From: an uncultured Candidatus Saccharibacteria bacterium
Lineage (GTDB): Bacteria; Patescibacteriota; Minisyncoccia; Phycocordibacterales; UBA9973
DNA length: 64,000 bases
Reading direction: 5' to 3'
Assembly (NCBI GenBank): GCA_964468315.1
Contig: CAYXTA010000001.1
Location: 193 to 64,192, forward strand
Shown here piece by piece: positions 5,991 to 26,718 of the stretch. The translations under genes were made by a program, and so were the position numbers. The stretch's first letter is position 1. Every line of letters begins with the position of its first letter. Under the pieces are notes generated by a model. That model searched no databases and had not been told where the DNA came from. It was given only the letters and a program-made list of their open reading frames with translations.

Positions 5991-6007
5991 GGTTAGGCTT
6001 CATTGTA

Positions 6008-6765: not shown

Positions 6766-6771
6766 CAAAAT

Positions 6772-7353
6772 ATGGCTAATGAATATATTGTAATTACTCA
6801 AATTTCTCAGATTAATAATTCCTTAAAAACTTTAGTTCAATCTGGAGATCATGTTTATTTTATTAAAGATATTTTATTACCTTTAATAATCTCCTTCTTT
6901 ACTTTCAGTCTATCTCTATTATTTGGTTTTCTTGTTTTGAAAAGAAGGCCTAATTTTAAAGTGTTCCATGTTCAAAAAAATATAGATATTACAAGTCAAG
7001 AATTTTCTAAAGAAGTAGTTATCAATTTAAACGGGGCAATCTCAACAGATTTTGAATTTTCTATAAAACCAGAACTCAAATTCCCACTATTTTATTCAAG
7101 TAAAAATTCTAAGTGTAGAATCCAGTTAGTAGATAAAGAAAATTTGTTAATGTTTCCTTTGTTAGATAAACTTCCTGGTTTGCCATTAAGATATAAGATT
7201 GATCCTTTTGAAATAGAAGAACCAAATATTATCAAGCATTTTTCATTTTTGATATCTCCAGAAAAAACTTTCGAAAAATATACTTTGTATTTATGGATTT
7301 ATTTTCGAGGTAAAAAATTTGAAGAAAAACTTATTGTTTCAATTTATAAATAG
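6772..7353 (+). CDS. hypothetical membrane protein
   Basis: ORF 6685..7353 trimmed to ATG 6772 (MANEYIV) because the upstream part overlaps tRNA-Gln. One TM segment. Confidence 0.45.
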   Translation: MANEYIVITQISQINNSLKTLVQSGDHVYFIKDILLPLIISFFTFSLSLLFGFLVLKRRPNFKVFHVQKNIDITSQEFSKEVVINLNGAISTDFEFSIKPELKFPLFYSSKNSKCRIQLVDKENLLMFPLLDKLPGLPLRYKIDPFEIEEPNIIKHFSFLISPEKTFEKYTLYLWIYFRGKKFEEKLIVSIYK

Positions 7354-7378
7354 TATTTAATTCTGCTATAATACAACT

Positions 7379-7669
7379 ATGAAAAAACCAATTTATTATG
7401 CATTAGGGGCGGTGGGTTATATTGTTTTAATAGTTCTTGGAGTAAATTCAACTACACATTTTCCACAAAAAGAGACGATTATTATTCCTATGATAATGCT
7501 TAGTTTATTTGTATTGTCTGCTGCTGTGATGGGATTTTTATTTTTATCTGAACCACTTCGTCTTTTTATGGAAAATAAAAAACAAGAAGCTCTTAAATTC
7601 TTTTTAAAAGTTTTAGGAATCTTTGCCTGCTTTGTCGCTATTTTTGTAATAATACTTTTGCTAATTTAA
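7379..7669 (+). CDS. small integral membrane protein
   Basis: 96 aa with three hydrophobic helices. Confidence 0.45.
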   Translation: MKKPIYYALGAVGYIVLIVLGVNSTTHFPQKETIIIPMIMLSLFVLSAAVMGFLFLSEPLRLFMENKKQEALKFFLKVLGIFACFVAIFVIILLLI

Positions 7670-7702
7670 ACTTTTTGATTGTGCTATAATGTTTTCATAT
7701 AT

Positions 7703-8833: not shown

Positions 8834-8846
8834 TTTTTTATTTCTT

Positions 8847-9308
8847 ATGAGGCGTATTTTAAATAATATAAAAGAGCATCATGATGTAGCTCGCAAACAT
8901 TTAGATAAAAAGTTATTTTTACGAGTGGTTATTTTTATAATAATTTTTATCGTGATGGTTGGTTTGATTATTTTTAATGTTTTTGAAAACAAAATAGGGA
9001 TTCTTTTGGCGAGTTTTGGTTTTCTTTTGGGTTATACGATAGGTACACTCACTGGAAGAGTTTTTAAAATTCGTTGGAATAAAAAAGACAAAAAAGTCAT
9101 AGCCCGCATCGATGTGATAGGTTTTTTTATTTTAATTCCTTATTTAATTTTTACTTTTTTTAGAGATCAGATTTTAGAAAATTGGCTTCATGGAGTTTTG
9201 CTTACTGCTTTCACTTTCAGTCTTCTTGCAGGGATAATGCTCGGACGCGTAGTATATTTTTTTTCTCATATTAAAAAAACTTTAGGAGATAGAGGAATTT
9301 CTGTATAA
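8847..9308 (+). CDS. hypothetical membrane protein
   Basis: 153 aa with four hydrophobic helices. Confidence 0.45.
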   Translation: MRRILNNIKEHHDVARKHLDKKLFLRVVIFIIIFIVMVGLIIFNVFENKIGILLASFGFLLGYTIGTLTGRVFKIRWNKKDKKVIARIDVIGFFILIPYLIFTFFRDQILENWLHGVLLTAFTFSLLAGIMLGRVVYFFSHIKKTLGDRGISV

Positions 9309-9346
9309 AAGCTGAAATTTTATAGATTTTCTGCTAATATAATGCT

Positions 9347-11149: not shown

Positions 11150-11152
11150 ATA

Positions 11153-11260
11153 TTACTGAAAAGAAGGCATGTAAAGCATAATCATACTTGCGATGATCAG
11201 TACGCACAGTACTCCCCAGATGACTTGTATTTTCTTTTTGTGTTTTGGATTTAAAAGCAT
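11153..11260 (-). CDS. 35-aa hydrophobic small protein (not in ORF track)
   Basis: Minus-strand ORF reads MLLNPKHKKKIQVIWGVLCVLIIASMIMLYMPSFQ*: a basic N-terminus plus one TM helix. Confidence 0.3.
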   Translation of the reverse strand: MLLNPKHKKKIQVIWGVLCVLIIASMIMLYMPSFQ

Positions 11261-11304
11261 GTTATAAAATGTTCTCTATTAATGTATAATCATAGTATCA
11301 GATT

Positions 11305-11682
11305 ATGAAGAATTTTCAAGAGGACAATTTTAAAGATAGATTAATACATTCAAAAGTATTTTTGCTTATTTTACTTTGCTTTGTGCTTTTCTTTTTTTAT
11401 AATGTTATAAAATTTTCTGTAAAAGCATTTGAAACAAGAGAAAATAAAATTATTGCAGAAGAAAAAGTCGCGGGGTTACAAAAAGAAAAAGATAGACTTA
11501 ATTTAGAAATACAAAGACTCAATACCGAAGCTGGTGTAGAAGAAAATATTCGAAATAAATTCGCTCTTGCGAAAGACGGGGAAGGACTGATCGTTGTGCT
11601 TGATGATGAAAATCCACAAATACAAAAACCCCAAACAAAAATACAAAGATTCTTTTCTTTTTTAAAGAATTTTGTTAAATAA
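11305..11682 (+). CDS. septum formation initiator (FtsB/DivIC-like) coiled-coil membrane protein
   Basis: N-terminal TM helix then a coiled coil (LQKEKDRLNLEIQRLNTE), the typical FtsB/DivIC architecture. Confidence 0.55.
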   Translation: MKNFQEDNFKDRLIHSKVFLLILLCFVLFFFYNVIKFSVKAFETRENKIIAEEKVAGLQKEKDRLNLEIQRLNTEAGVEENIRNKFALAKDGEGLIVVLDDENPQIQKPQTKIQRFFSFLKNFVK

Positions 11683-11751
11683 AACAATCTTTGAAAAGAT
11701 TTTTTTATTTTGATACTATGTACAGACTTATTATTTAAATAAAAATTTGAT

Positions 11752-12150
11752 ATGAATGAAATAAACTTAAAAGAAGTGTTGGATGAAAAGGGTAGAAGAG
11801 CAAGTCCTGTATTACCGAGTGATGTGCGTAATTTTATTATAGATATCGATGGTACTATTTGTGATGATATTCCAAATGAAGAACCTGGACGCATGGTGAC
11901 TGCAGAAGAAATGCCAAATGCAAAAAGGTGTATAAATGAATGGTATGATGCAGGACATAAGATAACTTTCTTTACTTCAAGAAGAGATACAGAGCATGGA
12001 GAGATTACAAAAACATGGTTGAAAGATCATGGTTTCAAATATCACAGTATTATTTTTAATAAACCAAGAGGAGGGAATTATCTTTGGATAGACAATCTAG
12101 ATGTAAAAGTTGCTAAATTTCAGGGAGATTTTAATGATTTGGTTGTTTAA
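11752..12150 (+). CDS. HAD-superfamily phosphatase-like protein
   Basis: IIDIDGTICDD (the DxDGT nucleophile motif), then TSRRD and a downstream acidic motif. Confidence 0.5.
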   Translation: MNEINLKEVLDEKGRRASPVLPSDVRNFIIDIDGTICDDIPNEEPGRMVTAEEMPNAKRCINEWYDAGHKITFFTSRRDTEHGEITKTWLKDHGFKYHSIIFNKPRGGNYLWIDNLDVKVAKFQGDFNDLVV

Positions 12151-12197
12151 AAGTATTCTAGTATAATATACATATTACTTATTAATTTTTTAATTTT

Positions 12198-12431
12198 ATG
12201 AAAAATATAACAATTTATTCAACCCCGTCATGTCATTTTTGTCACTTAGCTAAAGATTTCTTTAAAGAAAATAATTTTTCTTATACAGAATACGATGTTT
12301 CTTCTAATATGGAAAAAAGGGCTGAATTAATTGAAAAAAGTGGTCAAATGGGTGTGCCTGTTATACTCATTGATGACAATCTCGTTGTAGGTTTCAACAA
12401 ACCTAAGATAGTAGAATTACTAGGCCTTTAA
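12198..12431 (+). CDS. glutaredoxin-like protein (NrdH/Grx family)
   Basis: 77 aa with CHFC redox motif near the N-terminus and GVPVI, a thioredoxin-fold signature. Confidence 0.7.
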   Translation: MKNITIYSTPSCHFCHLAKDFFKENNFSYTEYDVSSNMEKRAELIEKSGQMGVPVILIDDNLVVGFNKPKIVELLGL

Positions 12432-12884: not shown

Positions 12885-12957
12885 GCCGAGGTAGCTCAGT
12901 TGGTAGAGCGCTCCCCTGAAGAGGGAGATGTCACCAGTTCAAATCTGGTCCTCGGCA
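12885..12957 (+). tRNA. tRNA-Phe (anticodon GAA)
   Basis: Perfect cloverleaf: gccgagg...cctcggc, D-loop agttggta, anticodon loop ctGAAga, T-arm accag ttcaaat ctggt. Confidence 0.85.
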
Positions 12958-14498
12958 CAACCACAGAAGTCGGCGAAAATGGTCGGGTCAAAAGCGAATT
13001 TCTGCGAAATTCGCAAGGAGTCGGAAGTCCGTCCGGTCTTTATAAATAAGGTGAAATCCCATAAATCCCCCCAGTGTATGGAAACCATTTTGTCCTTAAT
13101 CACGGGGTTCGAGCCGACTTTTTGAAAAAACTTCTTCCATTCGATGTAATCGGAAGTTTTTTCTAAATTGACGGCTTCTTTTAAGGACAAAATGAAATTC
13201 CGCAAAGGTTCGACCCAATTATTTCTCTGATGTCCAAAATGACTCAAACTTTCCTCAAGCTTGATTTTTTGACGCATCAAAATATCTTTTCGTTCGAGAT
13301 ATATACCTTTCTCAACCTCGCCATCGAGATATATCGAGACGAGTCGATCAAGCTTGGTTTTTGTTTCGGAAAGTTTGGTCTTTACATTTTGGATATCAAT
13401 TCCGTTTGCCGAAATTGACTCACTTTCCCAAACAGTAATCTGCTTTTCCATTTCTTCAATTTCGGACAACGGAAACGACACTGATTGAAGCAGGGTACGC
13501 AATTGTGTGGCGAGTGCATTTTCCTGCAAATACGGCTGACTACACTTTCCTTTCTTTTTACTGCAACGATAATAAATATACCGAGTTCCAGAATCATTCG
13601 TTGCATATTGAGCCGTAATTGCTCCTGTGCATTCGCCACACTTCGCAAGACCACGAAAATCAAATGGATGCGCAATTTTTGATTTTCGTGGTCTTTGACG
13701 ATTTGCGTACACTTTCTGCACTGCTTCGAACAGTGTCGGAGAAATAATTGGCTCAAAGGTTCCATCGTACCACTCGCCACGATGGTTTATAAAACCGAGA
13801 TATGCGCGATTGGTAAGCATTTTCGCGATGGACCAAGTGCATAGTGGCGTTCCTTTTTTCTGTACAACTCCGTGATCCGCCAAAAAATCTGCCAAGGTTT
13901 CAAAAGTGTGAGTCTTGTTGGAATACTCTTCAAACGCTCGCTTAATAACTTTGCCATACACGGGATGTGGTTCGATATTCTTTGTTTTATAATTATTCAC
14001 ATAGCCCATCGGAGCGAGCGTTAGCCATTCACCACGACGGATTTTTTGGCGGATTCCACGCTTAACATTTTCAACTAAGTTGTCAGAAAAATATTTGGAT
14101 TGCCCGAACGCCACTTGCAACATAAATTTGCCTTGCGGAGTTGGCTCAAACCAAAACTGCGGAAAGCGTAAAGAAGCAATTCTGTTGATGTCTACAAGGT
14201 AAATTATTTTACCTCCATCAACAGAATTCCGAGCAAGACGGTCAGGGTGCCATGCCAAAATGCCAAGCGGTTCACTTGAGCTTTCAATATATTCAATCAT
14301 TTTGGCAAAACCGTCTCGCCCGGGCTTCTTTGCGCTTTTTGATTCTGTAAATACTTTTACAATATCAATGCGTTCTCTGCTCGCAAATTCTTTCAACTCA
14401 AAAAGCTGTGCCTCGATGGACATAACTTGCTTATCGTCCTCTTCAGTAGATTTGCGAGCATAGAGAACACATTTAGTTTTGGTTTGAGTTGTTTCCAT
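12939..14498 (-). CDS. large serine recombinase (resolvase/invertase N-domain + recombinase + zinc ribbon)
   Basis: METTQTKTKCVLYARKSTEEDD (catalytic Ser context), recombinase domain, and Cys cluster CGECTGA...YYRCSKKKGKC. Stop codon TGA is complementary to 12939-12941 inside the tRNA-Phe T-loop. Start taken at METT; an alternative in-repeat start lies at 14597. Confidence 0.85.
   Translation of the reverse strand: METTQTKTKCVLYARKSTEEDDKQVMSIEAQLFELKEFASRERIDIVKVFTESKSAKKPGRDGFAKMIEYIESSSEPLGILAWHPDRLARNSVDGGKIIYLVDINRIASLRFPQFWFEPTPQGKFMLQVAFGQSKYFSDNLVENVKRGIRQKIRRGEWLTLAPMGYVNNYKTKNIEPHPVYGKVIKRAFEEYSNKTHTFETLADFLADHGVVQKKGTPLCTWSIAKMLTNRAYLGFINHRGEWYDGTFEPIISPTLFEAVQKVYANRQRPRKSKIAHPFDFRGLAKCGECTGAITAQYATNDSGTRYIYYRCSKKKGKCSQPYLQENALATQLRTLLQSVSFPLSEIEEMEKQITVWESESISANGIDIQNVKTKLSETKTKLDRLVSIYLDGEVEKGIYLERKDILMRQKIKLEESLSHFGHQRNNWVEPLRNFILSLKEAVNLEKTSDYIEWKKFFQKVGSNPVIKDKMVSIHWGDLWDFTLFIKTGRTSDSLRISQKFAFDPTIFADFCGCAEDQI
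12955..13081. repeat. inverted repeat A, left copy (127 bp)
   Basis: Reverse complement of 14492..14618 with one mismatch. Overlaps the last 3 nt of tRNA-Phe. Confidence 0.9.
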
Positions 14499-14618
14499 AC
14501 ACTGGGGGAATTTATGGGATTTCACCTTATTTATAAAGACCGGACGGACTTCCGACTCCTTGCGAATTTCGCAGAAATTCGCTTTTGACCCGACCATTTT
14601 CGCCGACTTCTGTGGTTG
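14492..14618. repeat. inverted repeat A, right copy (127 bp)
   Basis: Matches 12955..13081 in inverted orientation. Contains the recombinase ATG and upstream region. Confidence 0.9.
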
Positions 14619-14882
14619 TGCGCTAATTATACGCTTTGCGCGAACTTTTTTCGAGAAGCAAAGTGATTAAGCGCATCCGTTGCGCTGAAGCGCCACCACG
14701 CCAAGCGTGGTGCTTTTCCTAAAAGGAAAAGACGGAAGCGCTTAGACCCAATGCGGACTCGGTTTTGCGAAAGCTATATTCTCTGGGATACGATTTTGCA
14801 AAACCTCGGCATATTCTTTTTTGAAATTCGGCAGGGTTTCGGTTTGGTTTGGCACGCAGGAGGGTCTGGGAGGAATGCGTGC
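14619..14882. repeat. inverted repeat B, left copy (about 264 bp, GC-rich)
   Basis: Reverse complement of 30958..31215 with a few mismatches. Begins gtgcgctaattatacg immediately after repeat A. Confidence 0.85.
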
Positions 14883-14920
14883 ACCTTTAATTTTGTACCC
14901 TGTTATATTTTAACATACCA

Positions 14921-14936
14921 TTGCGGTATACTGCAA
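14921..14936. promoter_or_regulatory. imperfect palindrome upstream of the HTH gene (candidate controller operator)
   Basis: ttgcggtatactgcaa is a near-palindrome centred on gtatac, about 20 bp upstream of the 14956 ATG. Confidence 0.3.
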
Positions 14937-14955
14937 CAAGGAGTAAACTCAATGT

Positions 14956-15162
14956 ATGAAAAGTGAGTCAAAAAAACTGGGAGGAAATCTAAAAACCATC
15001 CGAACTACAAAGGCAATATCACAAGGTGATATAGCGCGATCACTCGACGTTAGTCGAGGGTTTATTAGTAATATTGAAAATGGCAAAACCAACCCAACAC
15101 TTGAAACAATCGCAAGATTGGCAAAAGCTGTTGGTGTATCAACTAACGAGCTTTTGAAATAA
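14956..15162 (+). CDS. XRE-family HTH regulator (restriction-modification controller-like C protein)
   Basis: 68 aa. ISQGDIARSLDVSRGFISNIENGKTNPTLETIARLAKAVGVSTNELL is the canonical HTH_3/XRE fold. Lies immediately upstream of the restriction/helicase operon. Confidence 0.75.
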   Translation: MKSESKKLGGNLKTIRTTKAISQGDIARSLDVSRGFISNIENGKTNPTLETIARLAKAVGVSTNELLK

Positions 15163-15166
15163 TTGA

Positions 15167-18100
15167 ATGATAAAGAATTTCAACAATAAGACAGAAAAGG
15201 TTGGTGATGACCTAAAAAATACTATTAAAAAAGGCAGTAAACTTGATATTGCTGCTGCTATTTTTTCTATGTATGGATTTGAGAGCTTAAAAACTGAATT
15301 AAAAAATATTGATGAACTTCGTTTTATTTTCACTGATCCTACTTTTATTGAACTTGATAAAAGTAAGCGTCAAGAAAGAATGTTTGAAATTCTTGCAAAC
15401 AATAGAAAAAAAGCCATAGGAGGGTCTGATTTTGAAATAAATTTAAAGAACGAACTTAGAGGTAAATCTATTGCGAAAGAGTGCAAAAAATGGATTGAAG
15501 ATAAGGTAAAATTTAAAACAAATAGAGCTGGTGGATTCATCCAGCCTCAGTTTATTGTTCGTAATGAAGATGAATCAATTTTGTATAGTGGTATAAATGA
15601 ATTTAGTAGTTCTGGTGTGGGGTATGAAAAAGATAACTCTATTTTAAATATGGTAATGAAGTCTGATGATTATCAGACAACGCATGAGTATATTAAAAAT
15701 TTTGAAGAAGTATGGAATGACGAAAAATCATTAAAAGATGTTACTGATGAAGTCCTTGGTTATATTTCAAATATATATAAAGAGAATTCTCCTGAATTTA
15801 TTTATTACATAACACTCTATAATATTTTTGATGAATTTTTGGAAGATATAACAGAAGATGAATTGGCTAATGAAAAAACAGGGTTTAAAGAATCTGCTGT
15901 TTGGCATATGTTATACGATTTTCAAAAAGATGCTGTTTTGGGAGTTATTAATAAGCTTGAAAGACACAATGGTTGTATCTTGGCAGATAGTGTTGGATTA
16001 GGTAAGACTTTTTCTGCACTCGGTGTCATTAAATACTATCAAGAGAGAAATAAGAGTATTCTCGTTCTTTGTCCTAAAAAGCTCAGCGACAACTGGCAGA
16101 CTTTTCTTTCAAATTACGAAGACAATCAATTATATAAAGATAGATTTAATTACGATGTTTTATATCATACAGACCTTTCTCGCGATAAAGGGTTTTCAAA
16201 TGGTAAAGATCTTTCTCGTGTAAACTGGGGCAATTATGATTTGGTTGTAATCGACGAATCACATAACTTCAGAAATAATGATCCAAGAAAAGATAAGATA
16301 ACTCGATATCAGAAACTTTTAAATAATGTAATGAAAGCAGGAGTAAAAACAAAGGTCCTAATGCTCTCTGCTACTCCTGTAAATAATAAATTTACTGATT
16401 TAAAGAATCAAATAGCTTTGGCTTATGAGGGACATACAGATGTAGTTGATGATAAAATGGATATTACTAAATCAATTAATTCTATTTTAAATCAAGCACA
16501 AAGGACTTTTAATGACTGGTTAAAATTACCAGTAGAAGAACGTACTGGAACAAATCTTTTGTCTGAGTTGAATAAAAACTTCGACTTTTTTAAACTACTA
16601 GATAATATTACTATCTCAAGAAGTAGAAAACATATCATGAAGTATTATGATACTTCTGCTATTGGTAAATTCCCAAATAGATTAAAGCCTATTACTTATC
16701 GTTCGGATATTACTGATATAGAGGGATTTATGAAGGTAGATGAATTGTATGAACAATTGACCAGATTAAATATGGCCATGTATTCTCCTTTTGATTATAT
16801 TCTTCAAGATAAAATACAATTCTATAATGAAACTTATGATACTCAAATTTCAGGAAATTCGAGTTTAAAACAGTCTACTCGTGAAAAAAGTTTACAGAAA
16901 CTAGTGAAGATAAATTTTCTTAAAAGACTAGAGAGTTCTGTGGATTCATTTCGTATTACTTTGGAAAAATTTGTTAATGCAGTTGATGCAACTGTTAAAA
17001 GCATTGATGAGTTTGAAAAAACAGGAGTTAATAGTATTACAGAAGCTACCCAAATAAATGATTCTGGTTTTGATGAAGATGAGGAGAATGAAGATTGGCT
17101 TGATGATGAATTTAGTTTCGGTGGAAAAGTAAAAATAAACCTTGCGGATATGAATACTGCTGGTTGGAAGGAAGACTTACAATTTGACTATAAAATAGCA
17201 AAAGCAATTCTTGATGAAATGAAGCGTGTTACTCCAGAGCATGATTCTAAACTAAAAGATCTTCGAGATTTTATTACACATAAGATAAAAAATAATATAA
17301 ACCCAGATAATAGTAAAGTGGTAGTTTTTACAGCTTTTGCTGATACAGCAAATTATCTTTATGAAAATATATCTACTTGGGCTAAGGATACTCATGCACT
17401 AGAATCTGCTCGTATTACTGGTGGTGGAACCAATAAATGTACCCTCGATATAGATAGTCAATTTAATAACTTATTAATACATTTTTCACCACGATCAAAA
17501 GGTCGTCATGAAAAGTATAAGGACCACAAAGAAATCGATATTTTAATTGCTACTGATTGTATTTCAGAAGGTCAGAACCTTCAAGATTGTGATACTCTCG
17601 TAAACTACGATATTCACTGGAATCCTGTGCGTATAATCCAACGCTTTGGGCGTATTGACCGTATTGGATCTATTAATACTGATATACAGCTCGTAAACTT
17701 CTGGCCACAGATATCACTTGATGATTATATTAATCTTAAAAACCGCGTAGAGGGTCGTATGCTCCTTGTAGACATGACAGCAACTGGAGATGACAATGTG
17801 CTTACAAATCAATCTTCGGATATAGATTTTAGAAAACAACAATTAGAAAGACTTCAAAATGAAGTTGTGGATATTGAAGAAATGGATTCTGGTATTTCTA
17901 TTACAGATTTAGGACTAAACGACTTTCGTATGGATTTGGTGAATTACATTAAGTCTGGCCAAAATTTAGAAGGTTTAGCAAATGGTATGCATGCGGTATG
18001 CCCACAAGCACCAGAAAAAGGAGTAGAAAAAGGAGTTATCTTTGTATTAAAAAATATCAACAATGAAGTAAATATTGATAATACAAATCAACTTCATCCG

Positions 18101-18427
18101 TTTTATTTAGTATATATAAATGAGCAAGGGCAAGTTATTTCAAATCATCTTAATGTAAAAAATACTTTAGATATCTTACGTTCTATCGCTAAAGGTAAAG
18201 ACGAGCCTATTCCTGTAGTTTATGAATTATTTAACGACGAGACAGACGATGGTAAGAAGATGGATAAATATTCCAATCTTTTGAGTGAGTCTATACAATC
18301 AATCATCCATGTAAAAGATGAATCAGATGTAGATAGTTTATTTAGTGTTGGTGGTACTACTGCACTTATGAATAGTATAAAAGGTCTGGAAGATTTTGAA
18401 TTAATTAGCTTTATGGTTATTAAATAG
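15167..18427 (+). CDS. SNF2-family helicase/ATPase (SNF2_N + helicase C) with uncharacterised N- and C-terminal domains
   Basis: ILADSVGLGKTFSALGVI (motif I), VIDESHNFRN (motif II DEXH), LSATPVNN, and C-terminal ILIATDCISEGQNLQDC...HWNPVRIIQRFGRIDRIGS (motifs IV-VI). Confidence 0.85.
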   Translation: MIKNFNNKTEKVGDDLKNTIKKGSKLDIAAAIFSMYGFESLKTELKNIDELRFIFTDPTFIELDKSKRQERMFEILANNRKKAIGGSDFEINLKNELRGKSIAKECKKWIEDKVKFKTNRAGGFIQPQFIVRNEDESILYSGINEFSSSGVGYEKDNSILNMVMKSDDYQTTHEYIKNFEEVWNDEKSLKDVTDEVLGYISNIYKENSPEFIYYITLYNIFDEFLEDITEDELANEKTGFKESAVWHMLYDFQKDAVLGVINKLERHNGCILADSVGLGKTFSALGVIKYYQERNKSILVLCPKKLSDNWQTFLSNYEDNQLYKDRFNYDVLYHTDLSRDKGFSNGKDLSRVNWGNYDLVVIDESHNFRNNDPRKDKITRYQKLLNNVMKAGVKTKVLMLSATPVNNKFTDLKNQIALAYEGHTDVVDDKMDITKSINSILNQAQRTFNDWLKLPVEERTGTNLLSELNKNFDFFKLLDNITISRSRKHIMKYYDTSAIGKFPNRLKPITYRSDITDIEGFMKVDELYEQLTRLNMAMYSPFDYILQDKIQFYNETYDTQISGNSSLKQSTREKSLQKLVKINFLKRLESSVDSFRITLEKFVNAVDATVKSIDEFEKTGVNSITEATQINDSGFDEDEENEDWLDDEFSFGGKVKINLADMNTAGWKEDLQFDYKIAKAILDEMKRVTPEHDSKLKDLRDFITHKIKNNINPDNSKVVVFTAFADTANYLYENISTWAKDTHALESARITGGGTNKCTLDIDSQFNNLLIHFSPRSKGRHEKYKDHKEIDILIATDCISEGQNLQDCDTLVNYDIHWNPVRIIQRFGRIDRIGSINTDIQLVNFWPQISLDDYINLKNRVEGRMLLVDMTATGDDNVLTNQSSDIDFRKQQLERLQNEVVDIEEMDSGISITDLGLNDFRMDLVNYIKSGQNLEGLANGMHAVCPQAPEKGVEKGVIFVLKNINNEVNIDNTNQLHPFYLVYINEQGQVISNHLNVKNTLDILRSIAKGKDEPIPVVYELFNDETDDGKKMDKYSNLLSESIQSIIHVKDESDVDSLFSVGGTTALMNSIKGLEDFELISFMVIK

Positions 18428-18428
18428 C

Positions 18429-19046
18429 ATGAACTTCAATTTACCCCAGCAGGCATATTTACACAGATTTATACCAAAGAATAAATTCTCTGATAAAACT
18501 GAAGTTAATACAAAGCTAAAAAAAGAATTTACAGATCAAATACAGAAAATAATTTGGGAATATAAATTAGCTCCTAGTACTGTTGGTATATCTGCCACCG
18601 AAAAAGTTGAAGAAATTCAAATATTTGAAATTCAATTAAAGGAAAAAATAATACCTAAAAATGTATTAAAAATTATAGACAAAGCTATCCCGTATCCTAT
18701 TTTATATGTTTTTAAATACGAAGGACATTATGCTTATGGTATTACCTTAAAAGAAGATAACTCTCAGAGATATTACTTCTCAGAATGGGATGAGAAAAAG
18801 GAATTTAATTTCTTTGGTATCGACCTGGAACACGTGTACCAAGGCTTAGTTACCAGTTTTATTGGTATTCGCCAGAAGGGTCAAGATTTTGCTACAATAG
18901 TAAATACAGATAAACAAATAGAATCCTTAGAAAAAGAGATCAATGCTCTGAAAAACAAGGTCAAAAATGAAAAGCAATTCAACAGAAAAGTAGAGTTAAA
19001 TAAGGTATTAGCAGAAAAAAAGAAGTCGCTCAAGTCTATATTATAA
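18429..19046 (+). CDS. small uncharacterised protein, DUF4391-like (tentative)
   Basis: 205 aa with C-terminal coiled coil. AIPYPILYVFKYEG resembles, from memory, the conserved YPI motif of the DUF4391 family, which co-occurs with SNF2 helicases and methyltransferases. Not verifiable here. Confidence 0.4.
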   Translation: MNFNLPQQAYLHRFIPKNKFSDKTEVNTKLKKEFTDQIQKIIWEYKLAPSTVGISATEKVEEIQIFEIQLKEKIIPKNVLKIIDKAIPYPILYVFKYEGHYAYGITLKEDNSQRYYFSEWDEKKEFNFFGIDLEHVYQGLVTSFIGIRQKGQDFATIVNTDKQIESLEKEINALKNKVKNEKQFNRKVELNKVLAEKKKSLKSIL

Positions 19047-19067
19047 ATTATCAATAACATCATTATT

Positions 19068-21005
19068 ATGAAAAAACTAGCAATGCAAACACCAGACCTT
19101 ACAGAAGGTAATATTACAAAGATAAAAGAACTATTTCCTAATGTAATTACTGAAAAGGAAGGTCCTGATGGTGTTATTGAAAAGGCCGTAGACTTTGAGC
19201 TTCTGAAGCAGATACTTTCAAAAGAGCTAGTGGAAGATGATAATGAGCGTTATCGCCTCGACTGGCCTGGTAAAAAAGCTTCACTTTTGAAAGCGAATAC
19301 CCCTATTACTAGCACACTTCGTCCAGACAGAGAAAGTAGTGTTAATTTTGATACAACTGAAAATGTGTTCATAGAAGGCGATAACTTTGAAGTTTTAAAA
19401 GTCCTCCAGGAGTCATATTTAGGAAAGATAAAAATGTGCTACATTGACCCCCCATACAATACGGGAACTGCAATGATTTATAGTAATGATTTCAGTAAAA
19501 CAGAAGAAGAATATGATGAAGAAATGGGTGCGGTTGATGAAGAAGGTATCAAAATGTTCAAGAATACTGACAGTAACGGTCGCTTTCATAGTGATTGGCT
19601 TAGTATGATGTATGAAAGGATTGTTGTAGCTAGAGATTTGTTAACAAATGATGGTTTTATGGCATTGGCTATTGATCATAATGAGTTACATAATTTAATA
19701 TCAATTTGTGATGAAATTTTTGGTGAAAATAATAGAGTGGGAGTAATCACTGTAGTACATAAACCAGAAGGAAGAAATCAAGAGAAGTTTTTTGGAACAA
19801 GTAATGAATTTATGCTTGTTTATTCAAAAAATAAAGATGAAGCAAATTTTAATGATGTTGTTTTAGATGATTCCCTTGCTGAGTTATTTGACTCAAACGA
19901 TGAAAGAGGAAAGTTTAAATTAAAGAATTTTATTAGATTGTCGGATGGTAAATATAGTTTGAGAGTTAATAAACCACATTTTTATTATCCTGTTTATGTT
20001 AATGGTGACTTTACAGAAATTTCACTAAGTCAAAAGGATGGATTTATCGCAGTCTATCCAATAACTCAGGCTGGGCAAGAGAGAACATGGAAAACTACAC
20101 CAGAAACATTAGTAGATAGATTTAATAAAGGTGATTTAATATTTACAAAAAATAAGGATAATGAGATAGAGCTTTTTGAGAAACTTAGAGAAAATCAAGT
20201 TATTAAAACACACTGGATTGATAAAAAATATCACGGTTATCATTTTGGTACAAAAATCATTGATTCACTATTGGGAGATAAAACATTTGATTTTCCAAAG
20301 TCATTATTTTTAATGAAGGATGTTTTAAAAATGATGGCATCAGGTGATGATATTATCTTAGATTTTTTTGCTGGATCAGGTACAACAGCACATGCTACTA
20401 TTCAGTTAAATGTAGAAGATGGCGAAAATAGAAAATTTATTATGGTTCAAATTCCAGAAAAAACAGAGAGTGATTCTGATGCATACAAAGCGGGTTATAA
20501 AACTATTTCAGAAATTAGTATGGAGCGTATACGTAGGGCAGGCAAAAAGATTGTAGAGGAAAATGCAGAAAAATTAAAAGAAAGAGAAACACCGTTAGAT
20601 ATTGGATTCCGTGTGTATAAGACTGATACAACAAACATGAAAGATGTTTACTATCATCCGTCTGCCGTCAACCAGGATGATTTGTTTAATCACGTTAGTA
20701 ATATAAAAAATGACAGAACACCAGAGGATTTGCTCACTCAGGTAATTCTTAACCTTGGGCTAACCTTAGACCTCCCAATAGAAAAGAAAAATATAAAAGG
20801 TAATGATGTTTATTTTGTCGCAGGTAATGCACTCGTTGCTTGTTTTGATGACAAGATTGATTTTGGGATCGTGGAAGAAATAGCAAAGTCTGAGCCGTTA
20901 AAAGTCGTATTCAAAGATGCAAGCTTTAAGGAAGAACAAGATAGAACAAATGTCGAAACAAAATTCAAGAGGTTGTCTCCGGAAACAATAATCACTGTAT
21001 TGTAA
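19068..21005 (+). CDS. Type III-like DNA methyltransferase (Mod; beta-class N6-adenine/N4-cytosine methyltransferase)
   Basis: CYIDPPYNTG (motif IV DPPY) lies N-terminal to ILDFFAGSGTTAHA (motif I FxGxG). This order is the beta-class permutation typical of Type III Mod. Confidence 0.85.
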   Translation: MKKLAMQTPDLTEGNITKIKELFPNVITEKEGPDGVIEKAVDFELLKQILSKELVEDDNERYRLDWPGKKASLLKANTPITSTLRPDRESSVNFDTTENVFIEGDNFEVLKVLQESYLGKIKMCYIDPPYNTGTAMIYSNDFSKTEEEYDEEMGAVDEEGIKMFKNTDSNGRFHSDWLSMMYERIVVARDLLTNDGFMALAIDHNELHNLISICDEIFGENNRVGVITVVHKPEGRNQEKFFGTSNEFMLVYSKNKDEANFNDVVLDDSLAELFDSNDERGKFKLKNFIRLSDGKYSLRVNKPHFYYPVYVNGDFTEISLSQKDGFIAVYPITQAGQERTWKTTPETLVDRFNKGDLIFTKNKDNEIELFEKLRENQVIKTHWIDKKYHGYHFGTKIIDSLLGDKTFDFPKSLFLMKDVLKMMASGDDIILDFFAGSGTTAHATIQLNVEDGENRKFIMVQIPEKTESDSDAYKAGYKTISEISMERIRRAGKKIVEENAEKLKERETPLDIGFRVYKTDTTNMKDVYYHPSAVNQDDLFNHVSNIKNDRTPEDLLTQVILNLGLTLDLPIEKKNIKGNDVYFVAGNALVACFDDKIDFGIVEEIAKSEPLKVVFKDASFKEEQDRTNVETKFKRLSPETIITVL

Positions 21006-21012
21006 TATTTAT

Positions 21013-24000
21013 ATGAAATTACAGTTTAAACAGCAACAATATCAAGCAGATGCCACAAATGCAGTGGTGCGGGTTTTTGATGGTCAAGAAAAAGGGGTTA
21101 GGAAGGAAGTGGTGGGAAGAGTTAAAGCAAATGATTTGTTTCAGAAGACTATGGTAGAAGAAATTTTTTCAAATAAAAAACTTGATATTGATGAAAAACA
21201 AATACTTACTAATGTGCAAGAACTCCAAAAAGAACAAGGAATAAAAGTTGGTAAAAAATTAGAGGGTTTAAATTTTACCGTAGAAATGGAAACAGGTACT
21301 GGTAAGACGTATGTTTACACCAAAACAATGTTTGAGCTAAATAAAGAGTATGGCTGGAATAAGTTCATAATTATGGTCCCCTCTGTTGCTATTCGTGAAG
21401 GAGTGAATAAGTCCATGGAAATAACGGCAGATCATTTTCAGGAAATATATGGTAAAAAAATAAGATTCTTTATTTATGATACAAAGAATAAGACAAATCT
21501 AACTAATATAAAATCTTTTGCAAATACATCGAATATTGAAGTGATAATAATGAATTATCAAGCTTTCGGACGAACAAGTAAAGATGCCTTGAAAATGTTC
21601 CAAAAGCTTGATGAGATGCAGTCAGAAAAGCCTATTGATGTTATCAAGCGTGCCCGCCCAATATTGATTATCGATGAGCCACAACGTTTTGGTCAAACAG
21701 CACAATCAATGCTTCCTGAATTTAACCCACTTTTTATTACTCGATATTCTGCAACACATAAAGAGGATTACAATAAAATATATCGTCTTGATGCTATTGA
21801 TGCATACAACCAAAAACTAGTTAAAAAAATAAGAGTAAAAGGGATAGAAGTAAAAGGTAATTCTGGTACGAATAGTTACTTATTCCTAGATAGAATACAT
21901 GTAAGTAGTAATGCATACCCTACCGCTACTGTGCAGATGGAGATAGAAACAAAACAATCTGGTGGAATTAAGAAGACTTTAAAGAAAATTAAGGAGGGAG
22001 ATAATTTATTTGCTGTCTCTGGTGAATTGGCTCAATACGAAGGATATCTTGTAAAAGAAATTAATGCACGTACGAATACCGTTTCTTTTACCAATGGGAT
22101 TTCAATATCAGTCGGTCAAGTCCATGGAGATGTAGATGAGCTACACATACGAACAATTCAAATACGTGAAGCAATAGCATCACATATAGAAAAAGAAAGA
22201 GAACTCTATACCAAGGGAATTAAGGTCCTCACCTTATTCTTTATTGATGAGGTTGCAAAGTATCGTGCTTACGATGATAAAGGAAAACAAATACGCTCAG
22301 AGTATGAGGAAATATTTGAATATGAATACAAACAGGCCATATCACAAAGAGATTTGTTTAATGATGAATATTATAAATACCTAGATTCTTTTGATGTATC
22401 AAAGGTTCATAATGGATATTTTTCTGTTGACAATAAAGGGAGAGCAGTAAATTCTAAAGAAACTCGAGGTCAGGATGGTAGTGACGATGTAAATGCATAT
22501 GATCTTATTATGAAAAATAAGGAACAATTACTGAGCTTCAAAGAGCCGACTCGTTTTATTTTTTCTCACTCAGCACTTCGTGAAGGATGGGATAATCCAA
22601 ATATTTTTCAAATATGCACACTAAAGCATAGTGAATCTACAATAAGTAAACGTCAAGAAATAGGCCGTGGACTTCGTATTGCTGTAAATGATCAAGGAGA
22701 AAGAATGGATCATAGTGTTCTTGAGAATGAATTTTTTGATATCAATACATTGACTGTTATTGCAAGTGAATCATATGATACTTTTTCAAAGCAATTACAA
22801 GGCGAAATTTTAGACACATTATCTGATCGCCCAAGTAGCCTAGAAGTTGGTGTATTCAAAGACAGGATTCTAAAAAATAAAGACGGAGAGACTTTTGTTT
22901 TTGACGATAAACATACTATGGATTTAATATTTATGTTTAAGGAAAAGGGTTATGTTGATAGTGATTACAAAATTACAGAAAAACTAATAGAGGCTATTGA
23001 TTCAGATACAGTTGAAATACCTGTAGTTCTTGTAAATTTTAAAACAGAATTGGTAAATATGATTCAAAAAGTGCACGCAACAAATACCTTTAAATCTTCA
23101 GAAGATGATCGTGCTAATAATGTAAAAGTATCTATTTTAAAACCTAATGAAAACTTCTTCAAACAGGAGTTTAAGGATTTATGGAATAAGATAAAAATAA
23201 AGACAGTATATGATGTTTCTTTTGATGGTAAAGAACTAATTGAAAAAAGTATCAAAAGTATCGATGCTACGCTAGATGTAAATAAAGCTACTGTTAGAGT
23301 TACTATTGGTGAGCAAAAAGACAATATAACAGAAGAATTATTAAAAAGTGGTGAGTCTATTTCAAAAACAAGTAATCAAATAGAGAAAACTGAAAGTATT
23401 TTAGGTTCAATTAAATATGACATTATAGCTGAAGTCGCAAAGGGTGCAAATATAACAAGAAAAACATCAGGTGAGATTCTTGGTAAAATGAACAAAATCA
23501 AATTTGCTTTGTTCAAGGTGAATCCCGAGCATTTTATTCGTGAGGTTGTTCGTCATATTAATGAACAAAAAGCAGCAACTCTTATAAATAATATAACTTA
23601 CCACAAGCTCGACAGTGTATATGAAGATGACATTTTTACTGTAAATAATTTCCAAGGAGCACTTGATAATAATGTTCTAAAAGTAAACAAGCATATTTAT
23701 GAATACGTGAAGACTGATTCTAAAATAGAACGTAAATTTGCAGAAGAAATGGATCTCGAAGGTAGTAAAGTCCTTATATACGCAAAATTACCTAACGGCT
23801 TTAAGATTCCTACTCCAATAGGTAATTATAATCCGGACTGGGCTATTGTATTTGATAGTAAGGATATTAAATATATCTATTTCATCGCTGAAACAAAAGG
23901 TAGTATGAGTACACTACAACTAAAAGGATCTGAATTACAAAAAATAAATTATGCTAGAAAACATTTTGAAGCATTGTCGTGTGCTGATTTGAAATACGAT

Positions 24001-24045
24001 GTTGTAGATAGTTACGAGAGTTTAATGGAAAAAGTAATGAGGTAA
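21013..24045 (+). CDS. Type III restriction enzyme Res subunit (helicase-nuclease)
   Basis: METGTGKTYV (Walker A), ILIIDEPQRF (DEAH-like), FIFSHSALREGWDNPNIFQIC (helicase motif VI region), and a long C-terminal domain. About 1000 aa, as for Res. Confidence 0.85.
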   Translation: MKLQFKQQQYQADATNAVVRVFDGQEKGVRKEVVGRVKANDLFQKTMVEEIFSNKKLDIDEKQILTNVQELQKEQGIKVGKKLEGLNFTVEMETGTGKTYVYTKTMFELNKEYGWNKFIIMVPSVAIREGVNKSMEITADHFQEIYGKKIRFFIYDTKNKTNLTNIKSFANTSNIEVIIMNYQAFGRTSKDALKMFQKLDEMQSEKPIDVIKRARPILIIDEPQRFGQTAQSMLPEFNPLFITRYSATHKEDYNKIYRLDAIDAYNQKLVKKIRVKGIEVKGNSGTNSYLFLDRIHVSSNAYPTATVQMEIETKQSGGIKKTLKKIKEGDNLFAVSGELAQYEGYLVKEINARTNTVSFTNGISISVGQVHGDVDELHIRTIQIREAIASHIEKERELYTKGIKVLTLFFIDEVAKYRAYDDKGKQIRSEYEEIFEYEYKQAISQRDLFNDEYYKYLDSFDVSKVHNGYFSVDNKGRAVNSKETRGQDGSDDVNAYDLIMKNKEQLLSFKEPTRFIFSHSALREGWDNPNIFQICTLKHSESTISKRQEIGRGLRIAVNDQGERMDHSVLENEFFDINTLTVIASESYDTFSKQLQGEILDTLSDRPSSLEVGVFKDRILKNKDGETFVFDDKHTMDLIFMFKEKGYVDSDYKITEKLIEAIDSDTVEIPVVLVNFKTELVNMIQKVHATNTFKSSEDDRANNVKVSILKPNENFFKQEFKDLWNKIKIKTVYDVSFDGKELIEKSIKSIDATLDVNKATVRVTIGEQKDNITEELLKSGESISKTSNQIEKTESILGSIKYDIIAEVAKGANITRKTSGEILGKMNKIKFALFKVNPEHFIREVVRHINEQKAATLINNITYHKLDSVYEDDIFTVNNFQGALDNNVLKVNKHIYEYVKTDSKIERKFAEEMDLEGSKVLIYAKLPNGFKIPTPIGNYNPDWAIVFDSKDIKYIYFIAETKGSMSTLQLKGSELQKINYARKHFEALSCADLKYDVVDSYESLMEKVMR

Positions 24046-24059: not shown

Positions 24060-25208
24060 ATGGTAGGAAAAAATAAAAAACTAAATAAAATTTTACCAGA
24101 TAATCTTAAAAAAGAAGAGGAACGTCCTAAATGGACAGATATGAATGATGTTCTTAAGGTCTATAAGTATTACAGTAAACAGTATAGTTGGATGCATCTT
24201 GTTGTTGCTCAGAATAAATTTTCAAAGAAAAAATATCTTCGTCTAAAAAAATATTTCAATTGGTTTGCCATTCCTGATGCTGGTTATTTGGCAGTACTTC
24301 AGAATATTTTAAAAAAGGGAGCTCAAGAGCTTGAGTGGAAATATAAAAATGATTTAGAAGTAAAACTTGAAGAAGTAACAGATAAAAAAGAAAAAAGGGA
24401 TATATTAAAATCAAATAAATCGAGTGGAATTCCAGAAGAAATACTTGAATTTATACAGAAATTTCCTGACTTTACAAAAAAACTTATTTCACTTGATTTA
24501 GAAAACAAGAAATTAGAAGAAATACTTGAAGTTATGAATATGACTGCTGATGCTATTTCTGTTTCTGGTGATCGTTTTCGAATAGCATTTCAGGAGTTGC
24601 TTGGAAAGATTTCTAAAGAAGAACCTAAAAGTATGATGGAATTATCTGATTTAATGGAAAAATATAATTTGAATCAACTTACTTCACTTTTAAATATAGT
24701 AAAATCACGACTACAAACCATTGAAACATTTGAGCAAATGATTCACAACGATAAAACTTATGAAATCAGAGGCGATAAATCTGTACATCGTGTATTAGAA
24801 AATAGTATGTGGCTAGTCGATGATAAATACTGGATTGTGTCTTCGAATAAATCTCTTCGTGATTTTATTGGTGTAGGTATGGAAAAAGAGGATAAAAAAT
24901 ATAAAAGCAAAAGACCTGATTTTGTTTGTGTAGATCATGATAATAAAATAATAATATTGGAAATTAAAAGACCTTCAGTCGAATTAAAAAAAGAAGAAAT
25001 AGATCAAGCTGTTTTATATTTACGAATGATAAAAAAATATCACTCACAGAAAAAACCAGTCGAAGTCTACTTAATAGGTAATACAATTTCAGAAGAAGCG
25101 AGAGATATAGCAGAACTAATGCCAACAATAAAATTACAAACATACCAGGAATTTTTAGAAAAATGTAGAGCCAGATATAAGCAATATTTAAATATAGTAG
25201 AAGTTTAA
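24060..25208 (+). CDS. hypothetical protein with C-terminal PD-(D/E)xK nuclease-like core
   Basis: RPDFVCVDHDNKIIILEIKRP gives PD-x13-ExK. N-terminal 250 aa unassigned. Confidence 0.4.
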   Translation: MVGKNKKLNKILPDNLKKEEERPKWTDMNDVLKVYKYYSKQYSWMHLVVAQNKFSKKKYLRLKKYFNWFAIPDAGYLAVLQNILKKGAQELEWKYKNDLEVKLEEVTDKKEKRDILKSNKSSGIPEEILEFIQKFPDFTKKLISLDLENKKLEEILEVMNMTADAISVSGDRFRIAFQELLGKISKEEPKSMMELSDLMEKYNLNQLTSLLNIVKSRLQTIETFEQMIHNDKTYEIRGDKSVHRVLENSMWLVDDKYWIVSSNKSLRDFIGVGMEKEDKKYKSKRPDFVCVDHDNKIIILEIKRPSVELKKEEIDQAVLYLRMIKKYHSQKKPVEVYLIGNTISEEARDIAELMPTIKLQTYQEFLEKCRARYKQYLNIVEV

Positions 25209-25212: not shown

Positions 25213-26718
25213 ATGAAATTAATTTCTAAATCAAAATTCTTAGACTATCTAACTTGCCCTAAAGATGCATGGTTTAGAATGCATAAGCCAGAATTGAAAG
25301 AATTTGAAATTTCTTCTGGGCTACAAAACACATTTGACCAAGGTTATGAAGCTGAAGAATATGCAAAACAATTAAAAGTATTTTCTGGATTTATAGAAGT
25401 CACAGCTAAAGGAGTTGATGTAAAAAAAGAAGTTGACTCATTAATAGAGAAAAAGGTTCCAGCCATTTATCAGCCGACATTTATTGCAGATGGATTTATT
25501 ATTCGTTGCGATATGCTCGTCTGGGATTCAGAATCTTCTAAATGGGATTTGTATGAAATAAAATCATCAACAAAAAGACATGATACAGGGGCTCGAGATC
25601 ATCTGTCTGATGCAGCTTTTCAGGCAATAGTTTTGGAACGCTATGGAATCTCGGTTGGTAAAATATTTATTGTTCATCTAAATAGTGAATATATAAAAAA
25701 TGGAGAAGTAGACATTGAAAATCTTTTTGTGCTAAATGATAGCACTTCTAAGGTTACAGCAAGAAGAGTTACCGTAGCTCCAGAAATGGAAGAAGCCAAA
25801 AAGTATCTTAATCAAGAAACTGAACCAAAGAATGGTTGCGATTGCATATATCGCGGTCGTAGTAGTCATTGTGCAACAACACACATTTCATACCCTAGTA
25901 TTCCTGAGTACTCTGTTCATGATCTTTCATACATTGGAAAGAGTCCTGATAAATTGAGAAGTTTAATAGAGAAAGGGATATATCACATACATGATATTGA
26001 AGATGCTTCTAATTTGACTGACAAGCAACAAAATCAAGTAATGGTGCATAAATCAGATACTGAAATGATAGACAAGGAAGAGATTGAGAATGTTCTGAAT
26101 AGCTATACCTACCCTTTATATTTCTTTGATTATGAGACTTATGCCCCAGCTATACCTATCTATGATGGGTTTTTCCCATATCAAAGAATTCCAATTCAGT
26201 TCTCTTTACATGTTATTGATAAAAAAGGTGGAGAAGTACGCCATGTGGAATATTTACAAACTGAAAATATAGATCCGTCGGAAACCGTGGCAAAAATGTT
26301 AAGTGAGAATATAGAACCAGAAGGAACAATTCTCGCATGGAATGTTGGTTTTGAAAAAAGTGTGACTACCGAACTTGCCTTACGGTTGCCAAAGTACAAG
26401 AATGTTTTAACTAGAATATGCGACCAAATGCAAGACTTAATGGATATATTTTCCAATCAACATTATGTACATAAAGGTTTTAAAGGTAGAGTAGCCATTG
26501 AACCAGTAATGAATACACTACTTCCTGAAATGACATATGACCACTTACCTTACACAGGAGCAGATGTTGGGTATGTATGGTGGAGTGATATAGTTAATGA
26601 AGGTAAAGAACCAAAAACAAGAGATGAAAAATTACATTTACTTTTGGAGTATTGTAAACAAGATACTTTTGTTATGGTGGAAATTTTCAGGATACTTAAT
26701 GAGATTATCAAGAAGTAA
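25213..26718 (+). CDS. RecB/Cas4-like PD-(D/E)xK nuclease fused to DEDD-like exonuclease domain (DUF2779-like, tentative)
   Basis: N-terminal C15 plus CDCx8C Cys cluster. DGFIIRCDM...LYEIK (D...ExK). YFFDYETYAP resembles exonuclease motif I; compare FVDIETTGL in the DnaQ-like ORF at 54715. Confidence 0.45.
   Translation: MKLISKSKFLDYLTCPKDAWFRMHKPELKEFEISSGLQNTFDQGYEAEEYAKQLKVFSGFIEVTAKGVDVKKEVDSLIEKKVPAIYQPTFIADGFIIRCDMLVWDSESSKWDLYEIKSSTKRHDTGARDHLSDAAFQAIVLERYGISVGKIFIVHLNSEYIKNGEVDIENLFVLNDSTSKVTARRVTVAPEMEEAKKYLNQETEPKNGCDCIYRGRSSHCATTHISYPSIPEYSVHDLSYIGKSPDKLRSLIEKGIYHIHDIEDASNLTDKQQNQVMVHKSDTEMIDKEEIENVLNSYTYPLYFFDYETYAPAIPIYDGFFPYQRIPIQFSLHVIDKKGGEVRHVEYLQTENIDPSETVAKMLSENIEPEGTILAWNVGFEKSVTTELALRLPKYKNVLTRICDQMQDLMDIFSNQHYVHKGFKGRVAIEPVMNTLLPEMTYDHLPYTGADVGYVWWSDIVNEGKEPKTRDEKLHLLLEYCKQDTFVMVEIFRILNEIIKK

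Follow-up and report, generated by a model that had tools for sequence, protein, structure and literature searches.

A conserved module of SNF2-family ATPase, DUF4391 and Type III Mod and Res genes on a Saccharibacteria genomic island and in distant phyla

A stretch of 64,000 nucleotides (nt) from an uncultured Candidatus Saccharibacteria bacterium (GenBank assembly GCA_964468315.1, contig CAYXTA010000001.1, positions 193 to 64,192 of the forward strand; hereafter the window, with positions counted from its first letter) encodes a Type III restriction-modification (R-M) pair, Mod and Res, preceded by the genes of a large SNF2-family ATPase and of a small protein of the DUF4391 family. We read these four genes as one defence unit, a motor-assisted Type III R-M system in which Mod and Res are permanently partnered with a SNF2 motor and a DUF4391 adaptor by a mechanism that we infer, and we give this reading a probability of about one half. 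The searchable literature yielded no description of the four-gene unit and PADLOC 2.0 contains no such system, in agreement with an earlier prediction, made from the letters of the window (hereafter the original prediction), that a SNF2 protein, a small protein and a Type III pair do not together make a recognisable named system.

The genes lie on the plus strand in a run of five open reading frames (ORFs), which encode a 68-residue helix-turn-helix (HTH) protein (14956-15162), the SNF2 protein (1086 residues, 15167-18427), the DUF4391 protein (205 residues, 18429-19046), Mod (645 residues, 19068-21005) and Res (1010 residues, 21013-24045), with successive gaps of 4, 1, 21 and 7 nt. The coordinates originally given for this run, 14956-24045, proved exact, with spacings of 1-21 nt; the proposed five-gene unit is to be reduced to a conserved core of four, SNF2, DUF4391, Mod and Res, the XRE-type HTH gene being found in few loci.

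Mod matched PADLOC MTase_III (E=2.4e-204) and the Mod subunit of EcoP15I (4zcf_A, E=6.7e-59), and carries DPPY at residues 127-130, before DFFAGSG, the motif order of a beta-class N6-adenine methyltransferase. Its central target-recognition region is variable, several loci aligning at the N- and C-terminal parts only, as expected of divergence in target recognition. Res, immediately 3' of mod on the same strand, matched PADLOC REase_III (2.3e-290), Pfam RE_endonuc (3.6e-32, residues 892-999, nt 23686-24009) and EcoP15I Res (4zcf_C, E=1.5e-77), the ATPase and nuclease domains and the PD...E-x-K residues of the last being aligned. It joins a superfamily 2 (SF2) ATPase (Walker A GTGKT, motif II DEPQ) to a C-terminal PD-(D/E)xK endonuclease (NPDW...AETK); the Walker A motif that had been predicted is present, and the predicted DEAH is not, motif II reading IIDEPQRF. 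Res scores 387 bits against the cut-off of 564 for NCBIfam PRK15483, and its middle third (residues ~566-880) did not align to EcoP15I. The EcoP15I matches and the beta-class motif order confirm Mod and Res as the genuine Type III pair they had been taken for. By every sequence criterion tested the system belongs to the Type III R-M family, within which it forms a separate clade, and, to judge from their motifs and domains, Mod and Res carry everything needed for a Type III enzyme.

Genome contigs searched with the DUF4391 alignment returned 57 loci, which span Saccharibacteria, Gracilibacteria, Peribacteria, Omnitrophota, Desulfobacterales, Planctomycetota, Spirochaetes, Bacteroidota, Clostridia, Campylobacterota, Gammaproteobacteria and Woesearchaeota; the one nearest to the locus of the window is in a Saccharibacteria metagenome-assembled genome (MAG). 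Among loci with sufficient flanking DNA, DUF4391 is preceded by SNF2 in 45 of 46 and followed by Mod in 43 of 46 and by Res in 28 of 31. The same order is found, at 23-37% DUF4391 identity, in annotated plasmid records from E. coli (pJH51-3), Acinetobacter sp. NEB149 (pMsp65), Mycolicibacterium, Vibrio parahaemolyticus, Desulforapulum, E. faecium (pQL50) and A. hydrophila; it recurs on a B. cereus plasmid and in seven further contexts from distant cluster representatives; order and orientation relative to Mod and Res remain fixed across 23-84% DUF4391 identity. When the flanking ORFs were clustered all against all, only SNF2, DUF4391, Mod and Res proved to be general. The distance matrices of the four proteins, compared over 28 complete loci, correlate at r = 0.94-0.99 (Mantel test, a level reached by 0 of 999 permutations), which means that the four genes change and spread together. 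The recurrence of this order in dozens of unrelated genomes exceeds by far what chance would give. The neighbourhood analysis thus bears out, through order and orientation kept across phyla and through this co-divergence, the suspected conservation of SNF2 and DUF4391 with Mod and Res.

Further features of these loci concern the relations within the unit. SNF2 is the most conserved of the four, with a mean identity of 63%, followed by Res (58%), Mod (52%) and DUF4391 (46%); such a ranking is more in keeping with a core motor than with a rapidly evolving sensor. Most loci have the SNF2 stop overlapping or adjoining the DUF4391 start (-4 to +3 nt), an arrangement that points to translational coupling. 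Full-length relatives of Res on plasmids (33-48% identity) nearly all accompany the SNF2-DUF4391 pair, and Res proteins of EcoP1 type align to the window Res over only half its length. The module was found in 10 of 5426 complete E. coli genomes, mostly on plasmids, one E. coli plasmid version occupying nt 3193-12220 of CP095457, and the versions on plasmids of E. coli, Enterococcus, Acinetobacter and Vibrio open its roles to direct experimental study.

The SNF2 protein divides into three parts. Its two-lobed ATPase core (residues ~245-850, 15899..17716, plus strand) is delineated by Pfam domains (SNF2-rel_dom, residues 256-469, and Helicase_C, residues 765-834), by motif conservation and by PDB matches to SMARCA5, CHD1L, Snf2 and RapA. 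The motifs GLGKT, DESH and QRFGRIDRIGS are intact and nearly invariant among relatives, and a helical, acidic insert of ~300 residues separates the lobes. The conserved C-terminal domain (residues ~860-1086, 17744..18427, plus strand), with the blocks ITDLGLNDFRMDL, LHPYYLVY and SLFS.GGT, has no sequence relative in a PDB profile search; the unassigned C-terminal part, put at about 180 residues in the original prediction, in fact measures ~220-250. The N-terminal ~250 residues had been termed unassigned as well, and these now include a domain of phospholipase D (PLD) fold (residues 1 to ~205, 15167..15781, plus strand), assigned by structural match: an AlphaFold2 model of residues 1-253, with a predicted local distance difference test score (pLDDT) of 70.6 overall and 83-94 in the core blocks, returned SauUSI, a PLD fold, as its top match. 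The fold is seen only by structure prediction, since sequence searches were negative; neither terminus matched Pfam at E<=10, and a PDB profile search with the N-terminus gave no match. The best PADLOC profile for the protein, labelled 'HKD+Snf2', aligns from residue 6.

This N-terminal domain is devoid of the HxK catalytic motif, the window protein reading IQPQFIV where HxK is expected and the motif being present in 0 of 19 diverse relatives. The PLD domains of SauUSI, BfiI and MtsD dimerise, and by analogy with these we infer that the N-terminus of the SNF2 protein is a PLD domain that has lost its catalytic function and has been retained for dimerisation or for contact with DNA. Over its full length the protein is matched by phrog_26785 ('unknown function', E=5e-259); RefSeq names the family 'helicase-related protein', and it comprises at least 8000 candidates.

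The 205-residue protein between SNF2 and Mod matches Pfam DUF4391 (PF14335) along its full length (residues 3-201, E=3.8e-46, 158.3 bits against a gathering threshold of 29.9), a family for which clustering at 50% identity gives 2380 clusters at E<=1e-3 and 1223 at E<=1e-10. In its predicted structure (pLDDT 87.7, predicted template modelling score 0.79) an alpha/beta domain (residues 1 to ~145) is followed by a C-terminal helical hairpin (residues 154-204), both within 18429..19046 on the plus strand. The tip of the hairpin, E181-x-Q183-x-N185-x-K187 (nt 18969-18989), is conserved better than any other motif of the family, even among members down to 16% identity, and K17, W43, E62 and K71 are likewise conserved; the YPI motif that had been noticed earlier is real, being conserved as IPYPILY. 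Conservation of a polar hairpin tip suggests a contact or activating element, not a generic coiled coil. Comparison with solved structures gave no PDB profile match and no Foldseek match against PDB at E<0.001, and neither PADLOC 2.0 nor NCBIfam has a DUF4391 model. In the searchable literature, DUF4391 or PF14335 is the subject of no functional statement; it appears in one incidental table entry (PMC7784981) and in one typographical error for DUF7941.

Among relatives of this protein, one carries a C-terminal ASCH domain (L071). A metagenomic protein of 442 residues (P0376) was considered as a natural SNF2-DUF4391 fusion and rejected: it combines a full DUF4391 with three SNF2 pieces, derived from the N-terminus (109 residues), lobe 1 and the C-terminal domain, and it is an in-frame deletion derivative, a decayed copy. 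Two unannotated 13-kb contigs from human faeces, recorded as 'Bacteriophage sp.' (MT836075 and MT836122), also encode DUF4391; either some phage or prophage records carry the module, or these contigs are misclassified.

Classical Type III enzymes methylate one strand of an asymmetric site, and their ATP-dependent cleavage needs two inverted unmethylated sites; they are the standard example of restriction through passive sliding that ATP triggers. In the motor-assisted system that we favour, Mod would hemimethylate an asymmetric site and Res would cleave unmarked foreign DNA, while the SNF2 protein, probably itself no nuclease, would dimerise through its dead PLD domain and translocate on double-stranded DNA. 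The DUF4391 protein, presumably made in fixed ratio with SNF2 by translational coupling, would couple this motor to site-bound Mod-Res through its hairpin tip. ATP-driven movement would then supplement or replace the passive sliding of classical Type III enzymes, would let two complexes meet past DNA-bound obstacles, and may relax the requirement for inverted site pairs.

Several observations weigh against this reading. In a Paludibacter MAG (L056 1161-11218), SNF2-DUF4391 is followed by a Type IV-like enzyme with a GmrSD_N (DUF262) domain and by a protein of >1360 residues with DEAD and UvrD helicase domains, Mod and Res being absent, and two other Bacteroidota MAGs place the pair beside unrelated genes, one of them with a broken SNF2; SNF2-DUF4391 is therefore not strictly tied to Type III enzymes. 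An S. epidermidis plasmid encodes Mod and Res, 43% identical, without the pair, and Mod/Res may therefore function alone. The searches made with the alpha/beta domain of DUF4391 and the C-terminal domain of SNF2 gave no match by which to assign a fold. Finally, the recurrent pairing of SNF2 proteins with methyltransferases in DISARM class 1, ARMADA and BREX type 3 could be a sign that the pair acts in methylation instead. A variant that we put forward tentatively would make SNF2-DUF4391 a portable ATP-driven motor and adaptor, by which passively sliding Type III enzymes, and occasionally GmrSD or DrmAB, become actively translocating or loaded, with the hairpin tip as the coupling or activating element.

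That the pair serves methylation, as a loader or regulator, is the main rival reading, which we judge rather unlikely. In that role it would help Mod onto DNA or activate it, or strip proteins from the DNA, with the result that no site escapes methylation; the host would thereby be protected during replication and on arrival of the island in a new cell, in parallel with MtsA/MtsB of MANTIS and with DDM1/LSH of eukaryotes. Such a role is favoured by the recurrence of SNF2-methyltransferase pairs (DrmD-DrmMI, ArmA-ArmB, BrxHII), by the position of DUF4391 directly before Mod in the simplest operons, and by the high mobility of the module on serine-recombinase islands and plasmids, which makes establishment in naive hosts a recurrent problem. 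It also recalls MANTIS, in which an ATPase and a small co-regulator are required to load the methyltransferase, for hemimethylation (preprint 10.64898/2026.09.23.753747). However, the occurrence of the pair in a methylase-free GmrSD operon, and of Mod and Res without it on the S. epidermidis plasmid, argues against an obligatory methylation role, and the cargo often lodged between DUF4391 and Mod implies that tight coupling of these two is not required. EcoP15I-type Mod, moreover, methylates without a partner, and the Mod of the window is its close structural homologue.

It is quite unlikely, in our estimate, that the pair is an independent two-gene defence or sensor, travelling with the Type III genes for complementary protection, for instance as a backup when restriction is blocked or as a portable device for several nucleases. 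This would account for its presence alone or with other effectors (GmrSD and the giant helicase in L056, SIR2 nearby in L057), for the attachment of DrmA-DrmB in B. cereus, and for a frame that tolerates SIR2-HerA and Schlafen/AlbA_2 inserts, which are typical of defence islands; the single DUF4391-ASCH fusion hints at a nucleic-acid reader. Yet the pair has no recognisable effector, its PLD domain being devoid of catalytic residues, its fixed order and co-divergence (r up to 0.99) are much tighter than those of ordinary defence-island neighbours, and the Res clade is specific to it. Coincidental adjacency, or a RapA-like housekeeping remodeller beside an ordinary Type III system, we regard as excluded. 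The helicase lobes do give weak matches to RapA and to chromatin remodellers, but the RapA score is 52 bits against a cut-off of 576, synteny is kept from one bacterial phylum to another and in DPANN archaea, for the most part on mobile elements, and the window module occupies a recombinase island beside tRNA-Phe, with true housekeeping genes outside. That score and the conserved synteny speak against an unrelated housekeeping remodeller, a finding that would have refuted the original prediction.

The HTH protein at the head of the operon matches Pfam HTH_3 (E=7.6e-15) and PADLOC Control_protein (7.4e-13). Of 39 informative loci, 2 have a relative of this XRE protein ahead of SNF2 and six others encode an HTH_17 protein of excisionase type there; a Vibrio plasmid has an HTH_73 protein in the HTH position, an A. 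hydrophila plasmid has an ORF of the same size there, and most loci have no gene in that position, which looks like a regulator slot whose gene is optional. An imperfect palindrome of 16 nt, TTGCGGTATACTGCAA (14921..14936), detected by repeat search, lies 20 nt 5' of the HTH start codon and overlaps a TATACT hexamer; from its sequence and placement it could be a candidate autoregulatory operator of the HTH protein. The gene had been likened to an R-M controller, and the likeness holds for its XRE and control-protein profile matches and its place at the operon head; it does not extend to most related loci, where the gene is absent or non-orthologous. R-M operons controlled by C proteins share with the window operon a small XRE HTH gene (68 residues here) at the head, a control-protein profile match and an upstream palindrome, whereas the HTH gene here is not kept with the system and stands before SNF2, not before the nuclease gene. 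An ORF of 71 residues (14751-14966) is probably not a gene and was treated as spurious, since it overlaps the HTH start, lies in a GC-rich leader (GC denoting guanine plus cytosine), and has no match in Pfam, PADLOC or NCBIfam.

The module of the window lies on an island of ~13.8 kb beside a tRNA gene, as indicated by a recombinase and tRNA-Phe at the left and by housekeeping genes on both flanks. The left edge is a tRNA-Phe (GAA) gene (12885..12958, plus strand, ARAGORN), the 3' end of which is overlapped by the stop end of a gene for a large serine recombinase of 552 residues (12939..14597, minus strand; Pfam Resolvase, Recombinase and Zn_ribbon_recom). In the GC profile this gene has a content of 0.42 against ~0.31 in its surroundings, and it is probably the mobility or integration module of the island. 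To the left of the island are LepA and DivIC, both housekeeping genes, tRNA-Arg and the tRNA-Phe; on the right, beyond 26.8 kb, housekeeping genes of HD-domain and SppA-like type follow. A search for att-like direct repeats at the borders of the island gave nothing convincing. At least two other loci (L005 and L050) also have serine recombinases beside the module.

The operon runs on past Res, with gaps of 14 and 4 nt, into two further genes. The first (24060..25208, plus strand) encodes a 382-residue protein with a C-terminal PD-(D/E)xK domain (RPDF...LEIKRP), which matches the C-terminal BbrUII/HgiDII model of NCBIfam (4.2e-11) and, further, a weak Pfam HSDR_N_2 and phrog_6203. The second (25213..26718, plus strand) encodes a 501-residue protein with a Cas4-like N-terminus (PADLOC Cas4, 6.4e-07) and a DUF2779 domain (Pfam, 3.5e-38). 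Neither gene stands beside the module in any other locus compared, and the two may form a nuclease pair of their own or be cargo of the island.

Elsewhere the operon frame holds inserted genes within an order that is itself kept, including RhuM in 13 loci and proteins with ORF6N, Bro-N, KilA-N, 23S_rRNA_IVP four-helix and PDDEXK_3 domains. Insertions lie between Mod and Res (L005, L007, L011, L015, L017, L026, L052 and others), between DUF4391 and Mod (L009, L011, L012, L018, L021, L027, L033), and between SNF2 and DUF4391 (L014, L015, L019, L039, L048); genes of these kinds are also known to nest within Type I R-M operons. Defence cargo between DUF4391 and Mod comprises, in L072 (3012-10863), a pair of SIR2_2 and DUF87 (HerA) genes with a Schlafen/AlbA_2 gene; the same interval in L076/L077 (1533-6134) holds a 976-residue protein without family match and an AlbA_2/HATPase_c_4 protein, and a weak-TIR gene follows the DUF4391-ASCH fusion (L071 5042-5359). 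The frame may be a hotspot for new defence genes, and its RhuM, SIR2-HerA and Schlafen-like inserts make it a useful place to look for them. Listeria plasmids retain remnants of the module scrambled by insertion sequences. In a Gracilibacteria MAG (L035) the module was found by tblastn, and its ORFs are fragmented under translation table 11; this is consistent with the alternative code of Gracilibacteria, in which UGA specifies an amino acid.

The existence of a large, conserved Type III clade with its own SNF2 motor and adaptor suggests that the passive-sliding picture is incomplete, and the module is a natural experiment in which the contribution of a dedicated translocase to communication between sites, or to methylation, can be studied. 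Annotation pipelines label only Mod and Res in it, leaving SNF2 and DUF4391 unlabelled. If the motor-assisted reading is true, it would provide a role both for the DUF4391 family with its 2380 clusters and for the RefSeq 'helicase-related protein' family; should the portable-motor variant hold, the system would be a fourth, so far unrecognised architecture of ATP-dependent restriction, beside Type I, Type ISP and classical Type III, and would give a first function to a DUF4391 family of >2000 sequence clusters.

Among known systems, the classical Type III enzymes EcoP15I and EcoP1I (Mod2Res) have homologous Mod and Res proteins, the same domain order, mod before res, a beta-class methyltransferase, and an SF2 ATPase joined to a PD-(D/E)xK nuclease. 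They differ from the module in that it has two added upstream genes, SNF2 and DUF4391, and a Res that falls in a separate clade with DEPQ as motif II. DISARM class 1 resembles the module in combining a SNF2 helicase, an adenine methyltransferase and a helicase-type effector, with a PLD-fold element present. Here, however, the methylase is of the N6_N4_Mtase/Mod type, not DrmMI, the PLD element is inactive and fused to SNF2 in place of a separate DrmC-like PLD gene, and DUF4391 is no DISARM component. Queries with DrmA and DrmB from B. cereus gave no tblastn match in the window at E<=0.01, no operon protein contains DUF1998, and the SNF2 protein scores 163.8 bits against the DrmD equivalog NF038317 of NCBIfam, below the cut-off of 610; DISARM was rejected as the identity of the system on these grounds. 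The DUF1998 and PLD partners of DISARM had been predicted to be absent, and this is so of DUF1998; a PLD element is present, though catalytically degenerate, in the SNF2 N-terminus. Neither DrmA nor DrmB was found in the window or in 70+ other loci, with the exception of B. cereus pJ39_1 (L070, NZ_AP022953.1 223811-237544), where DrmA, DrmB (DUF1998), SNF2, DUF4391, Mod and Res make up a single tight operon that lacks a separate DrmC. This locus is a DISARM/Type III hybrid in which the PLD-fold domain of SNF2 might take the place of DrmC, and with DrmA-DrmB directly before the module the link to DISARM is closer than had been assumed.

MANTIS (Gao_RL), the BREX-related BR systems and SauUSI share with the module a PLD fold fused to an SF2/SNF2 ATPase motor, SauUSI being the top structural match here, as reported for MtsD. 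MANTIS has in common with it, further, self-marking by methylation, with a logic of hemimethylation that is predicted here, and a small co-factor, MtsB there and DUF4391 here. In MANTIS, site-bound methyltransferase complexes recruit the PLD-helicase motor (preprint 10.64898/2026.09.23.753747), a precedent for the motor-assisted reading. The PLD domain of the window protein differs from those of MANTIS and SauUSI in having no catalytic His and Lys, the nuclease being supplied by Res. Pfam and PADLOC scans of the nine island proteins detected no AAA+ ATPase of MtsA type (DUF499/BrxC-like), no MtsB and no DUF3780, and MANTIS and the BR systems were rejected as the identity for want of a DUF499/AAA+ ATPase; against the PLD-helicase anti-phage family NF042964 the SNF2 protein scores 127 bits, the cut-off being 1100. 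ARMADA, rejected likewise because a YprA helicase is absent, and BREX type 3 resemble the module in encoding a SNF2 motor beside the methyltransferase of a methylation-based defence; they differ in the methyltransferase family (PglX-like there), in their effectors, YprA helicase or PglZ, and in having no DUF4391. In its logic, the module resembles DISARM, MANTIS and the PLD-helicase nucleases: self-marking by methylation and a helicase-nuclease effector are joined in it by an additional SNF2/PLD motor.

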